NCBI RefSeq assembly: GCF_057098645.1
Contig: NZ_CM169472.1
Reading direction: 5' to 3' (one strand)
DNA: 64,000 nucleotides
Part shown: one piece after another, positions 12,996 to 64,000 of the stretch
How the letters are laid out: every line of letters begins with the position of its first letter
Position numbering within the stretch: the stretch's first letter is position 1
Made by a program: the position numbers and the translations under genes
Notes under the pieces: generated by a model
The model's input: the letters and a program-made list of their open reading frames with translations, nothing else
Database searches by the model: none
What the model was told of the DNA's origin: nothing

Positions 12996-14126
12996 GTGAA
13001 AGTACTGACTGTATTTGGTACGCGCCCGGAAGCCATCAAGATGGCTCCGTTGGTGCATGCGTTGGCAAAAGATCCTTTTTTTGAGGCTAAAGTTTGCGTC
13101 ACTGCGCAGCATCGGGAGATGCTCGATCAGGTGCTGAAACTCTTTTCCATTGTACCTGACTACGATCTCAACATAATGCAGCCAGGACAGGGCCTGACAG
13201 AGATAACCTGTCGGATTCTGGAAGGGCTAAAACCTATTCTTGCCGAGTTCAAACCAGACGTCGTGCTGGTTCACGGCGATACGACGACGACGCTGGCAAC
13301 CAGCCTGGCGGCGTTTTATCAGCGTATTCCTGTTGGTCACGTTGAGGCTGGTTTACGCACGGGCGATCTCTATTCGCCGTGGCCGGAAGAGGCTAACCGT
13401 ACATTGACCGGGCATCTGGCGATGTATCATTTCTCCCCAACCGAAACTTCCCGGCAAAACTTGCTGCGTGAAAACGTTGCGGATAGCCGAATCTTCATTA
13501 CCGGTAATACAGTCATTGATGCACTGTTATGGGTGCGTGACCAGGTGATGAGCAGCGACACGCTGCGTTCAGAACTGGCGGCAAATTACCCGTTTATCGA
13601 CCCCGATAAAAAGATAATTCTGGTGACCGGTCATAGGCGTGAGAGTTTCGGTCGTGGCTTTGAAGAAATCTGCCACGCGCTGGCAGACATCGCCACCACG
13701 CACCAGGACATCCAGATTGTCTATCCGGTGCATCTCAACCCGAACGTCAGAGAGCCGGTCAATCGCATTCTGGGGCATGTGAAAAATGTCATTCTGATCG
13801 ATCCCCAGGAGTATTTACCGTTTGTCTGGCTGATGAACCACGCCTGGCTGATTTTGACCGACTCAGGCGGCATTCAGGAAGAAGCGCCTTCGCTGGGGAA
13901 ACCGGTGCTGGTGATGCGCGATACCACTGAGCGTCCGGAAGCGGTGACGGCGGGTACGGTGCGTCTGGTAGGCACGGATAAGCAGCGAATTGTCGAGGAA
14001 GTGACGCGTCTTTTAAAAGACGAAAACGAATATCAAACTATGAGCCGCGCCCATAACCCGTATGGTGATGGTCAGGCATGCTCTCGCATTCTGGAAGCGT
14101 TAAAAAATAATCGGATATCACTATGA
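12996..14126 (+). CDS. wecB: UDP-N-acetylglucosamine 2-epimerase
   Basis: GTG start; [19 protein letters not shown]... epimerase motifs. Confidence 0.93.
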
Positions 14127-39814: not shown

Positions 39815-39972
39815 GAAACTATCAGCAAAACATAAATCCCTACGAGTAAGCGTTATACTCGCAGCATTTCCTCACTTTTCAGACTTCATAAAGAGTCGCT
39901 AAACGCTTGCTTTTACGCCTTCTCCTGCGATGATAGAAAGCAGAAAGCGATGAACTTTACAGGCAATCCATA

Positions 39973-59170: not shown

Positions 59171-60070
59171 GTGGCGCTACTTATCATCACCACGATTCTG
59201 TGGGCCTTCTCCTTTAGCTTTTATGGCGAGTACCTTGCGGGGCACGTCGATAGCTATTTTGCGGTGCTGGTGCGCGTTGGCCTGGCGGCACTCGTTTTTC
59301 TGCCGTTTCTGCGTACCCGTGGCAATAGCCTGAAAACAGTCGGCCTGTATATGCTGGTGGGCGCGATGCAGCTCGGCGTGATGTATATGCTGAGTTTCCG
59401 CGCTTATCTCTACCTGACGGTTTCCGAACTGCTGCTGTTCACCGTACTGACGCCGCTCTACATCACGCTGATTTATGACATCATGAGTAAGCGCCGTCTG
59501 CGCTGGGGATATGCTTTTAGTGCCTTGTTGGCGGTGATTGGTGCCGGGATTATTCGCTATGATCAGGTCACCGACCATTTCTGGACTGGCTTGTTGCTGG
59601 TGCAACTCTCCAATATCACTTTTGCCATCGGCATGGTGGGTTACAAACGCCTGATGGAAACTCGCCCGATGCCGCAGCATAACGCCTTTGCGTGGTTCTA
59701 TCTTGGCGCGTTCCTGGTGGCGGTAATTGCATGTTTCTTGCTGGGAAATGCGCAGAAAATGCCGCAAACCACGTTGCAATGGGGCATTCTGGTGTTTCTT
59801 GGCGTGGTGGCTTCCGGGATTGGCTACTTTATGTGGAACTACGGCGCAACCCAAGTAGACGCCGGAACGCTGGGCATTATGAATAATATGCACGTTCCGG
59901 CAGGGCTGCTGGTTAACCTGGCTATCTGGCACCAACAGCCGCACTGGCCAACGTTTATTACAGGCGCGCTGGTGATCCTGGCCTCACTGTGGGTGCATCG
60001 TAAGTGGGTCGCTCCGCGCTCTTCACAAACGGCAGATGATCGCAGGCGTGATTGCGCGCTGAGCGAATAA
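59171..60070 (+). CDS. yigM: EamA-family transporter (biotin uptake)
   Basis: 299-aa 10-TM ORF; 3' end overlaps the convergent metR 3' end. Confidence 0.85.
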
Positions 60071-60911
60071 ATGCTTCTGTAATCGGCTGACGCTGCTCGC
60101 CATCGCGCACGGCGGCGTACAGCCGGCTCCACAAGCCTTCGCCCAGGGTTTTGGTCGCCACCAGATCCTGGCGCTCAAAACTCTCTACTACCCAATGTGG
60201 TAGCGCGGCAATACCCATCCGCGCGGCAACCATCTGAATCAACAATAAGGTGTTATCGATGCTTTTCAGTGACGGGCTGACGCCTGCCGGCTGAAGAAAA
60301 TGCCGCCAGACATCCAGTCGACTACGCTGCACCGGATAAATTAATAGCGTCTCGCTGGCGAGATCTTCCGGTGTAATACGCGTTTTTGCCGCCAGTGGAT
60401 GGTCAGGTGCTAACACCAGGCGTACTTCATAATCGAACATCGGCGAATAATGCAGGCCACTGCGCGGCAGGATATCGGAGGTCATCACCAGATCCAGCTC
60501 GCCCTGTTGCAACGCGGGCTGCGGGTCAAACGTCACGCCCGATTTAAAATCCATCTCTACCTGCGGCCAGTTCTTATGGAAATTTTCTAACGCGGGTGTC
60601 AGCCACTGAATACAGCTATGGCACTCAATGGCAATGCGCAGACGCGTCTGCTGCGGTTCATTGCAGGCTTGCAGTGCCTGGCTGATTTGCGGCAGCACCT
60701 GGTTTGCCAGTTGCAACAGGATTTCTCCCTGCGGTGTAAAGCGTAGCGGCTGGCTCTTACGCACAAATAGCCGGAAGCCAAGGCGTTGTTCCAGATCGCT
60801 AAACTGGTGAGACAGGGCGGATTGCGTCTGATGCAACGTCGCCGCAGCGGCTGCGAGAGAGCCGCAGTTCCGCAACGCTTGTAGCGTTTTCAGGTGTTTT
60901 ACTTCGATCAT
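59958..60911 (-). CDS. metR: LysR-family transcriptional activator MetR
   Basis: 317-aa [57 protein letters not shown]... Confidence 0.95.
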
Positions 60912-61146
60912 GAAAGTCCTTCACTTCGGCATGAATAATTTGCGCTTGAGGAATATACAGTAACCGCCAATTATGGATGTGTAAACATCTGGACGGCTAA
61001 AATCATTCGTCTTTTAAATTTATGGTGCGTTGGCTGCGTTTCTCCACCCCGGTCACTTACTTCAGTAAGCTCCCGGGGATGAATAAACTTGCCGCCTTCC
61101 CTAAATTCAAAATCCATAGGATTTACATATAATTAGAGGAAGAAAA

Positions 61147-63408
61147 ATGACAATATTGAATCACACCCTCGGTTTCCCTCGCGTTGGCCTGCGTCGCGAG
61201 CTGAAAAAAGCGCAAGAGAGTTATTGGGCGGGGAACTCCACGCGTGAAGAACTGCTGGCGGTAGGGCGTGAATTGCGTGCTCGTCACTGGGATCAACAAA
61301 AGCAAGCGGGTATCGACCTGCTGCCGGTGGGCGATTTTGCCTGGTACGATCATGTACTGACCACCAGTCTGCTGCTGGGTAACGTTCCAGCGCGTCATCA
61401 GAACAAAGATGGTTCGGTAGATATCGACACCCTGTTCCGTATTGGTCGTGGACGTGCGCCGACTGGCGAACCTGCGGCGGCAGCGGAAATGACCAAATGG
61501 TTTAACACCAACTATCACTACATGGTGCCGGAATTCGTTAAAGGCCAACAGTTCAAACTGACCTGGACGCAGCTGCTGGAGGAAGTGGACGAGGCGCTGG
61601 CGCTGGGCCACAACGTTAAGCCTGTGCTGCTGGGGCCGGTTACCTGGCTGTGGCTGGGGAAAGTGAAAGGTGAACAGTTTGACCGCCTTAGCCTGCTGAA
61701 CGCCATTCTGCCGGTTTATCAGCAAGTGCTGGCAGAACTGGCGAAACGCGGCATCGAGTGGGTACAGATTGATGAACCCGCGCTGGTACTGGAACTACCA
61801 CAGGCGTGGCTGGACGCATACAAACCCGCTTACGACGCGCTCCAGGGACAGGTGAAACTGCTGCTGACCACCTATTTTGAAGGCGTAACGCCAAATCTCG
61901 ACACGATTACTGCGCTGCCTGTTCAGGGGCTACATGTGGACCTTGTACATGGTAAAGATGACGTTGTTGAACTGCACAAGCGCCTGCCTTCTGACTGGCT
62001 GCTGTCTGCGGGTCTGATCAATGGTCGTAACGTCTGGCGCGCCGATCTTACCGAGAAATATGCGCAAATTAAGGACATTGTCGGCAAACGTGATTTGTGG
62101 GTGGCATCTTCCTGCTCGTTGCTGCACAGCCCCATCGACCTGAGCGTGGAAACGCGTCTTGATGCAGAAGTGAAAAGCTGGTTTGCCTTCGCCCTACAAA
62201 AATGCCATGAACTGGCACTGCTGCGCGATGCGCTGAACAGTGGTGACACGGCAGCTCTGGCAGAGTGGAGCGCCCCAATTCAGGCGCGTCGTCACTCTAC
62301 TCGTGTACATAATCCGGCGGTAGAAAAGCGTCTGGCGGCGATCACCGCCCAGGACAGCCAGCGTGCGAATGTCTATGAAGTGCGTGCTGAAGCCCAGCGT
62401 GCGCGTTTTAAACTGCCAGCGTGGCCGACCACCACGATTGGTTCCTTCCCGCAAACCACGGAAATTCGTACCCTGCGTCTGGATTTCAAAAAGGGCAATC
62501 TCGACGCCAATAACTACCGCACGGGCATTGCGGAACATATCAGGCAGGCCATTGTTGAACAGGAACGTTTGGGACTGGATGTGCTGGTACATGGCGAGGC
62601 CGAGCGTAATGACATGGTGGAATACTTTGGCGAGCACCTCGACGGGTTTGTCTTTACGCAAAACGGTTGGGTACAGAGCTACGGTTCCCGCTGCGTGAAG
62701 CCACCGATTGTTATTGGTGACGTTAGTCGCCCGGCACCGATTACCGTGGAGTGGGCGAAGTATGCGCAATCTCTGACTGATAAACCGGTGAAAGGGATGC
62801 TGACTGGCCCGGTGACCATTCTCTGCTGGTCGTTCCCGCGTGAAGATGTCAGCCGTGAAACCATCGCCAAACAAATTGCGCTGGCGCTGCGTGATGAAGT
62901 GGCGGACCTGGAAGCCGCAGGAATTGGCATCATCCAGATTGATGAACCGGCGCTGCGCGAAGGTTTACCGCTGCGTCGTAGCGACTGGGATGCATATCTC
63001 CAGTGGGGCGTGGAGGCCTTCCGTATCAACGCCGCCGTGGCGAAAGATGACACACAAATCCACACTCACATGTGTTATTGCGAGTTCAACGACATCATGG
63101 ATTCGATTGCGGCACTGGACGCAGACGTCATCACCATCGAAACCTCGCGTTCTGACATGGAGTTGCTGGAGTCGTTCGAAGAGTTTGATTATCCGAATGA
63201 AATCGGTCCAGGCGTCTATGACATTCACTCGCCAAACGTACCGAGCGTGGAATGGATTGAAGCCTTGCTGAAGAAAGCGGCAAAACGCATTCCGGCAGAG
63301 CGCCTGTGGGTCAACCCGGACTGTGGCCTGAAAACGCGCGGCTGGCCAGAAACCCGCGCGGCACTGGCGAACATGGTGCAGGCGGCGCAGAACTTGCGTC
63401 GGGGATGA
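61147..63408 (+). CDS. metE: cobalamin-independent methionine synthase
   Basis: 753-aa [33 protein letters not shown]... Confidence 0.96.
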
Positions 63409-63518
63409 TGAATATTAACGAGTCACTGTAAATTGCAGTACGATGAAAGAGGCAAAACTGCCTGATACCAGGCCTACATAATTTATGCAATTTATTGAAT
63501 TTTAGGGTTTTGTTGGCT

Positions 63519-63548
63519 GGACAAGGCGTTCACGCCGCATCCGGCATG
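63519..63548. repeat. REP element downstream of metE
   Basis: ggacaaggcgttcacgccgcatccggcatg. Confidence 0.7.
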
Positions 63549-63692
63549 AACAACGCGCACTTTGCCAATAATCTGATGGCTTCCATCACCGGAAGCCATT
63601 TTGCTATCTGCGCCCGTTCAGATACAGAAATAACCGAATCATTTTTACGCAAAATATAATCCTGAGCGATTTGTTCAGTAATCAACGCTACG

Positions 63693-63968
63693 TTATTTAT
63701 TCTCACTTTTCACGAAATTGTATCCCTTTTCAGTAACGTGGTAGTGAGGCATAGACTTATGTCCGCTATCCTCAATAATAACCAAACCCTCGTTAGCTAA
63801 TTTGTTAACAATGTTAACAACATTACCGAATCCTGGAATTTGCCTTATGGATAGTGTGCGATCGAGATTCATCCAGTTCCAGTTTATATCTTTCTCAGCC
63901 ATAACTTTCAGTACGTTAATTTCAGTTTCAGTTATCATAGTCAAGTGCATCCTGGTGGTATAAGTCAT
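63693..63968 (-). CDS. small winged-helix (MarR/PadR-like) DNA-binding protein, hypothetical; AT-rich accessory ORF
   Basis: 91-aa ORF with strong RBS (aagggagaa) 8 bp before ATG 63968; abrupt drop in GC relative to metE. Confidence 0.55.
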   Translation of the reverse strand: MTYTTRMHLTMITETEINVLKVMAEKDINWNWMNLDRTLSIRQIPGFGNVVNIVNKLANEGLVIIEDSGHKSMPHYHVTEKGYNFVKSENK

Positions 63969-64000
63969 TAAGTTCTCCCTTAAGTTTATAATCTTCTAGA

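Follow-up and report, generated by a model that had tools for sequence, protein, structure and literature searches.

The cobalamin-independent methionine synthase MetE is among the most abundant enzymes of methionine-starved cells. In Escherichia coli the promoters of metE and of the divergent metR gene overlap, and phylogenetic footprinting has placed the sites of the MetR regulator at -63 and -41 from the metE start, the proximal one (IR2) being the weaker of the two (PMC5002191); the MetR motif itself is ATGAA-N5-TTCAT (PMC4239095). The MetJ operator of the same locus is listed as a 24-bp metbox site of 21.08 bits, with the same sequence in K-12 and O157:H7, its distance to the metE ATG being 149 bp in K-12, 148 bp in O157:H7 EDL933 and Sakai, 30 bp in CFT073 and 161 bp, hence also long, in S. 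Typhimurium LT2 (PMC3228920, Table S1). ERIC (enterobacterial repetitive intergenic consensus, also IRU) sequences are described in reviews as miniature transposons of about 127 bp bounded by terminal inverted repeats, with TA, the target duplication, at their termini (PMC3184786). When co-transcribed, ERIC and Correia elements alter mRNA stability via RNase E or RNase III (reviews, including PMC3184786).

We analysed a stretch of 64,000 nucleotides, referred to here as the window, in which positions 60912-61146 correspond exactly to the 235-bp metR-metE intergenic region. To its left the minus strand encodes the LysR-type activator MetR (317 aa; 59958-60911) and to its right the plus strand encodes MetE (753 aa; 61147-63408), both genes being delimited by their open reading frames and by RefSeq annotation, in the case of metR that of the identical sequence of E. 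coli O145 RM9872. A Shine-Dalgarno sequence, GAGGAAG, can be read off at 61136-61142 (+), 4 nt 5' of the metE ATG. The intergenic region is 100% identical in E. coli O145:H28 strains and about 99% identical in O157:H7 and K-12. For the comparison across species, one genome per species was scanned for MetR relatives, which yielded 80 loci; in the 79 species of Enterobacteriaceae compared the 88-bp block adjoining metR is conserved and aligns without gaps. The first-pass annotation of this DNA had taken the region for a metR-metE divergent control region, and this description stands, the coordinates being those of the gap between both genes, and the MetR sites and the architecture being intact and conserved in the 79 species. 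We consider very probable, as a whole, an explanation in two layers, in which the metR-proximal 88 bp would be the classical shared control region for MetJ and MetR and would be followed by an ERIC element placed in the metE leader. Both components are known kinds of feature; the control-region layer is intact and the same as the published E. coli site, so that the operator is already known as such. In the neighbourhood, bioP (yigM, 59171-60070, +) and metR (59958-60911, -) are convergent and overlap by 113 bp at their 3' ends, as they do in RefSeq. Downstream of metE, homology to an E. coli strain with the short leader described below ends in 63409-64000 (identity 0.44), and in the matching O145 genome (L090, 3554-6923) the space between metE and ysgA contains three hypothetical genes, a transposase of the IS3 family and a truncated copy of tssD, which encodes the tube protein of type VI secretion; this region looks like a small strain-specific island.

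The MetJ operator was scored with the published information matrix and thresholds (PMC3228920, Table 3; Augustus & Spicer 2011), under which every box must score no less than one quarter of the consensus and the site as a whole more than 12.58 bits. Positions 60975-60998, about -5 to +19 of metE and common to metR, hold three tandem boxes: GGATGTGT at 60975-60982 (4.47 bits, in phase and passing), AAACATCT at 60983-60990 (9.34 bits) and GGACGGCT at 60991-60998 (7.25 bits), the last two each matching AGACGTCT at 6 of 8 positions. Their total of 21.06 bits makes this the top-scoring site of the window; 300 first-order Markov simulations of the window gave a mean of 0.62 passing sites, and a score of 21.06 bits or more was reached once (1/300). 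A consensus search for two met boxes with up to three mismatches returned no match, the actual site having 4 mismatches in 16 positions, and the weight matrix was used because consensus matching is too strict for such an operator. The earlier annotation had pointed to two adjacent met-box-like octamers as a MetJ operator and had proposed a weight-matrix scan as the check. The scan gives a score above background and the 24-mer is the same as the published K-12 and O157:H7 site; both octamers are real boxes, the operator consisting, however, of three boxes in tandem rather than two, with the weak first box having been missed. The distance from the metbox to the ATG is 148 bp, as in O157:H7. Across the 79 species the boxes lie at intergenic positions 64-87, with all three passing in 69 species and only boxes 2 and 3 passing in the other 10. 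As the literature on the identical K-12 sequence has it, MetJ with S-adenosylmethionine would bind the three tandem 8-bp boxes over the metE start and the overlapping metR promoter, and both genes would thereby be repressed and shut off. The only other passing site of the window, AGCCATCAAGATGGCT at 13031-13046, is borderline: it consists of two boxes, lies within a 390-aa open reading frame and, at 12.7 bits, barely exceeds the thresholds. It is probably not a real MetJ site, because about 0.6 such sites per window are expected by chance.

The two MetR sites, both 15-bp repeats whose centres are 21 bp apart, occupy the metR-proximal end of the control region. IR1 (ATGAAAGTCCTTCAC, 60910-60924), whose centre lies about -63 from the metE start, agrees with the motif in 9 of 10 positions and overlaps the start codon of metR; IR2 (ATGAATAATTTGCGC, 60931-60945), centred at about -41, was read off the sequence and has the left half-site only. 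IR1 is at least 90% conserved in the 79 species, where the ATGAA...TTGCGC of IR2 is conserved as well. The MetR motif by itself is not enriched across the window (2 matches against 2.7 expected), a count at chance level, so that the support for both sites comes from their position, their conservation and the literature. MetR binding at IR1 and IR2, as well as the transcription start, are putative assignments based on the published work and on position: MetR on the two inverted repeats would activate metE and repress its own gene. From the published IR1 and IR2 distances we infer a metE start at about 60979-60980, within met box 1, and a promoter at 60946-60974 (+) with TTGAGG as -35 (60946-60951), a 17-bp spacer and AATTAT as -10 (60969-60974). 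TTGAGG is conserved across the 79 species. A consensus promoter scan of 60850-61200 did not report this promoter, as expected for one that depends on an activator. The metE promoter must lie at or upstream of the boxes, since the roughly 30 bp that separate met box 3 from the ATG in short alleles are too little to accommodate it. Beside these observations, the MetR proteins of Pseudocitrobacter (L014, L015) are 96-97% identical to that of E. coli, compared with 90-94% for those of Salmonella and Citrobacter, and the Pseudocitrobacter operator is 99% identical, which hints at a transfer of the locus between genera.

Between the operator and metE the first-pass annotation had also noticed a GC-clamped hairpin, which is real: ccccggtcacttacttcagtaagctcccgggg at 61047-61078 has arms of 15 nt that are 80% complementary, and a 32-nt stretch shifted by one base (61048-61079) has a folding energy of -13.5 kcal/mol (z = -2.9), a stability reached by only 3 of 200 shuffled sequences. 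It does not stand alone but forms the middle of an imperfect palindrome of 125 bp at 61000-61124 which we identify as an ERIC/IRU element, that is, a non-autonomous miniature inverted-repeat transposable element. The element begins two bases past the third met box and is flanked by TA on both sides (60998-60999 and 61124-61125). Its terminal inverted repeats (61000-61025 and 61099-61124, 26 nt each) are 73% complementary and their pairs covary across species, while its conserved central inverted repeat, the hairpin just described, is matched in both arms by the ERIC primer cores. With the ERIC-PCR primer sequences of PMC3696847, the 18-mer core of ERIC2 matches 61045-61062 on the minus strand and the 16-mer core of ERIC1R matches 61065-61080 on the plus strand, each with 1 mismatch; both matches point outward, and 0-0.03 such matches are expected by chance. 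The family to which the segment belongs is found at 39,926 places in 5417 E. coli genomes (median 8 and up to 15 per genome), the other copies being 70-75% identical to the one at metE, which aligns full-length with four of them. All of the six loci examined, representing four distinct sites, are intergenic, examples being btsT-hpaC, ydiK-ydiJ, ardC-mobH and a position among tRNA-Gly genes. Presumably, the metE-metR copy is one of those already listed in the original ERIC/IRU descriptions; text searches of the accessible literature for a link between ERIC and metE retrieved nothing relevant. Lying downstream of the start site, the element would be transcribed in the metE leader, where it would extend from +21 to +145 of about 167 nt, as judged from the published positions.

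The hairpin is the core of a mobile element inserted in the mRNA leader and not a component of the repressor or activator system, and the earlier proposal that it takes part in MetJ/MetR regulation is not borne out; in the model favoured here ERIC would take no part in MetJ or MetR binding. That it might nonetheless belong to this design, as an attenuator, a terminator or a methionine-responsive protein-binding palindrome, is suggested by the position of a stable local hairpin between the operator and metE, and we regard it as most improbable. The scan of 60850-61200 found no terminator-like site, the hairpin being followed by ATGAATAAAC instead of a U-tract, and the reading as an intrinsic terminator or attenuator was rejected for want of that U-run. 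No met box within the hairpin passes the matrix, and the sequence recurs as a dispersed repeat beside genes as unrelated as btsT, ydiJ, mobH and those for tRNA-Gly. In Rfam no family reaches its gathering score, be it of riboswitches or of leaders, and no riboswitch matches even at a permissive threshold; the two sub-threshold matches reach 24.7 and 22.4 bits, where the gathering scores are 95 and 96, and are, on the minus strand in either case, to small-RNA families with ERIC-like sequence in their consensus. Moreover, the hairpin is absent from about 61% of E. coli genomes, in which the operator is identical.

The long, ERIC-containing form is present in 2099 of 5425 complete E. coli genomes. 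In E. coli strains of the ERIC-minus form the intergenic region measures 117 bp; it is the same up to the end of met box 3 and lacks about 119 bp thereafter. Between long and short strains the divergence is about 3-4% all along and peaks in the leader alone, for which reason a large recombination import was rejected as the source of the long allele of E. coli. The same dimorphism extends across genera, the intergenic region falling into two length classes of 114-123 bp (39 of 79 species) and 186-262 bp (40 of 79). All 40 long alleles carry ERIC directly after box 3 plus AAA, at the same junction. They comprise at least two subtypes, connected by intermediates: type A (about 235 bp), found in E. 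coli, many Citrobacter, Enterobacter soli, Kluyvera and Phytobacter, and type B (about 248 bp), nearer to the family consensus and with the left TA changed to CA, found in Salmonella arizonae and diarizonae, C. werkmanii and some Kosakonia. One long allele, the 186-bp intergenic region of Enterobacteriaceae bacterium UBA5654 (L054), has an ERIC from which nothing but the central core hairpin (about 48 bp) has been lost, and shows that the palindrome can undergo internal deletion. In turn, the short leader of about 30 nt (e.g. AAATCCTGAAAATTCCATAAGGGGCATATC; L001 462-479, L010, L047 and others) resembles two ERIC ends joined together, AAATCCT being the left and AAAATCCATAGG the right one, and short alleles keep AAAT(A/C)CT and AAAATTCCATAAGG, like the two ends of the element. 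The short allele may thus be what a deletion has left of an ancient ERIC, and not an unoccupied site, in a stretch that is too short for statistics.

Where present, the element equals the operator in its degree of conservation. Folded to a consensus, 39 long alleles give one extended hairpin with 28 pairs; 97.2% of cells are paired, and at 10 of the pairs both sides have changed. Covariation scores 0.236, compared with 0.095 in shuffles (0/500 reaching it) and at most 0.059 when the partners are slid. Among the 22 type-A alleles, compared over 211 species pairs with near-saturated synonymous sites, identity amounts to 95.9% in paired columns of ERIC, 87.4% in its unpaired columns and 92.5% in the operator, the third codon positions of metR and metE being 63.7% and 59.7% identical. 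Gene conversion from other ERIC copies is excluded as the cause, since those are only 70-75% identical and the type-A arms are unique to this locus. On a tree of MetR plus MetE, however, no fewer than 12 changes between the long and the short state are required, types A and B are interleaved among sister Citrobacter species, and third-position identity in the Citrobacter loci is raised (about 0.8) only in the first 30 metE codons. Taken together, these patterns point to an exchange of leader alleles among species through recombination of short tracts, a process that could likewise account for the high similarity. Either the structure of the ERIC is under selection or the allele spreads horizontally.

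It is well conceivable, if short of probable, that the metE ERIC is a passive selfish insertion without a role. On that view, its copies would be so similar among species because the leader allele as a whole has recently been passed on horizontally, through short recombination tracts running from the conserved operator to the conserved beginning of metE. Besides the state changes, the interleaved subtypes and the locally raised identity just mentioned, this would fit the intergenic region of Citrobacter sp. wls619, which is 98-99% identical to the long allele of E. coli even though synonymous sites are saturated, and the dispensability of the element, missing as it is from most E. coli genomes and from 39 of the 79 species. 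Recent spread accounts less well for an ERIC identity that drops roughly with taxonomic distance, from 0.98-0.99 in Escherichia to 0.94-0.99 in the Citrobacter freundii group and 0.87-0.93 in other genera, or for species (L028, L068 and L085) that remain 91-92% identical with flanks of no raised identity. The excess of identity in paired over unpaired columns, the pairs changed on both sides and the intermediates between subtypes argue against it as well. Another reading, which we put forward as rather doubtful, is that the element has been domesticated and its hairpin kept by selection, being one of three old leader alleles that species of Enterobacteriaceae exchange through recombination and that set metE control; these may be the short (about 116 bp), type A (about 235 bp) and type B (about 248 bp) alleles. 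Such control might be exerted through processing by RNases, through the CUUCC tract of ERIC covering the ribosome-binding site, or through the strength of FnrS pairing. We think it improbable that the constrained molecule is instead the opposite strand, as an antisense RNA toward metR, or the DNA itself, as a cruciform or a palindrome recognized by a protein. It is true that the minus-strand fold of the element is far more stable (-48 kcal/mol, z = -6.8) than that of the mRNA strand, and that this holds in 38 of the 39 ERIC-bearing species (means of -53.1 and -38.5 kcal/mol); wobble states at the variable pairs number 48 on the minus strand and 11 on the other, and the weak Rfam matches to small RNAs containing ERIC are also on the minus strand. 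Nevertheless, the promoter scan of 60850-61200 found no promoter-like site on the minus strand reading into ERIC, the asymmetry could be a trait that this copy has inherited from the ERIC family, and the wobble counts derive from very few evolutionary events, with one fixed wobble on each strand. Still, under simple selection on the metE mRNA a weaker hairpin on the mRNA strand would not be expected.

Our best guess for a function, and a tentative one, is that ERIC may tune the metE mRNA post-transcriptionally: within the leader RNA it would fold as an extended imperfect hairpin and could act through mRNA processing, mRNA stability or access to the ribosome-binding site. The element alone folds on the mRNA strand at -31.4 kcal/mol (z = -2.7 relative to shuffled sequence). 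The whole 5' leader is not more stable than its shuffles (z = -0.85), a level at which we make no claim of a globally structured leader. Both the minimum free energy and the centroid folds join CUUCCCUAA within ERIC (61096-61104, +) to UUAG-AGGAAG of the Shine-Dalgarno region (61133-61142), a predicted pairing that is not conserved in all long alleles. A Shine-Dalgarno sequence of the GGAA type occurs in 27 of the 40 long alleles and in 0 of the 39 short ones. We take metE to be a target of the anaerobic small RNA FnrS, and its single-stranded region, with the sequence taken from the K-12 record, was the part used to model pairing with the initiation region of metE; duplex prediction with full-length FnrS was rejected, as it returned unrealistically long duplexes. 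The predicted energies are -17.6 kcal/mol for the long allele (shuffles -8.5 ± 2.6) and -12.3 kcal/mol for the short one (shuffles -6.2 ± 2.1), with AGAGGAAG and GACAAUAU being the stretches tied to the predicted FnrS-metE pairing. The remainder of the leader, in its type of Shine-Dalgarno and its predicted pairing with FnrS, also differs between ERIC-plus and ERIC-minus alleles. As for other sequences within the element, ATGAATAAACTTGCC at 61080-61094 resembles the IR2 site of MetR, ATGAATAATTTGCGC. This segment differs among long alleles (ATGAGCAAAC, ATTCATAAAC); because of that variability it was rejected as a MetR site, the resemblance being probably fortuitous. A promoter-like match, TTCAAA-16 bp-TATAAT (10/12), lies over the right end of ERIC and its flank (61106-61133, +). 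It is kept only in the type-A alleles of Escherichia and Citrobacter, a start from it would fall inside the Shine-Dalgarno sequence, and it is probably not productive.

One implication of these results is that the leader of K-12 and O157 should not be regarded as "the" E. coli control region, since most E. coli have a leader about 118 nt shorter with another ribosome-binding site. It is also a useful correction that a conspicuous hairpin beside a well-studied operator is a mobile repeat outside its regulatory logic. If the domestication reading were true, the allele carried by a strain would set its post-transcriptional control of metE, and if the conservation reflects selection the locus would lend itself well to studying how a miniature transposon came to be recruited to the leader of a major biosynthetic gene, and natural ERIC-plus and ERIC-minus alleles allow a direct comparison. 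The dimorphism across genera and the conservation at the level of the operator are of modest interest only, and worth a note.

Compared with the common metE-metR operator of E. coli and Salmonella, the locus shows no difference of substance: the 24-bp metbox, its score and its distance to the ATG are the same as in O157:H7 (within 1 bp in K-12), and so are the positions of IR1 and IR2. A long structured 5' leader upstream of metE is also what this locus has in common with the metE leaders of other bacteria that are controlled by cobalamin or SAM riboswitches, with the difference that the structure here is a repeat element, optional within the species and without a riboswitch match in Rfam. With ERIC/IRU elements in general, the metE copy shares the length of about 125 bp, the central repeat matching ERIC1R and ERIC2, the terminal repeats and the TA flanks, along with the existence of multiple intergenic copies per genome and the polymorphism of presence and absence between strains. 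It departs from the typical element in being kept at one orthologous site across many genera, and from the other E. coli copies in that its lineage has arms of its own, TTTTAAATTTATGG and CCTAAATTCAAAA, not seen in those copies. A parallel for a function is given by the Yersinia ERIC and Neisseria Correia transcripts, in which, as here, a co-transcribed palindromic miniature transposon adjoins a highly expressed gene, and whose processing is, according to reviews, the only documented effect of such elements on expression. In those cases the element lies mostly 3' of the gene (Yersinia) or its cleavage has been shown experimentally, whereas the metE copy, known from sequence, is located in a 5' leader and presents on the mRNA strand the weaker of its two hairpin orientations.
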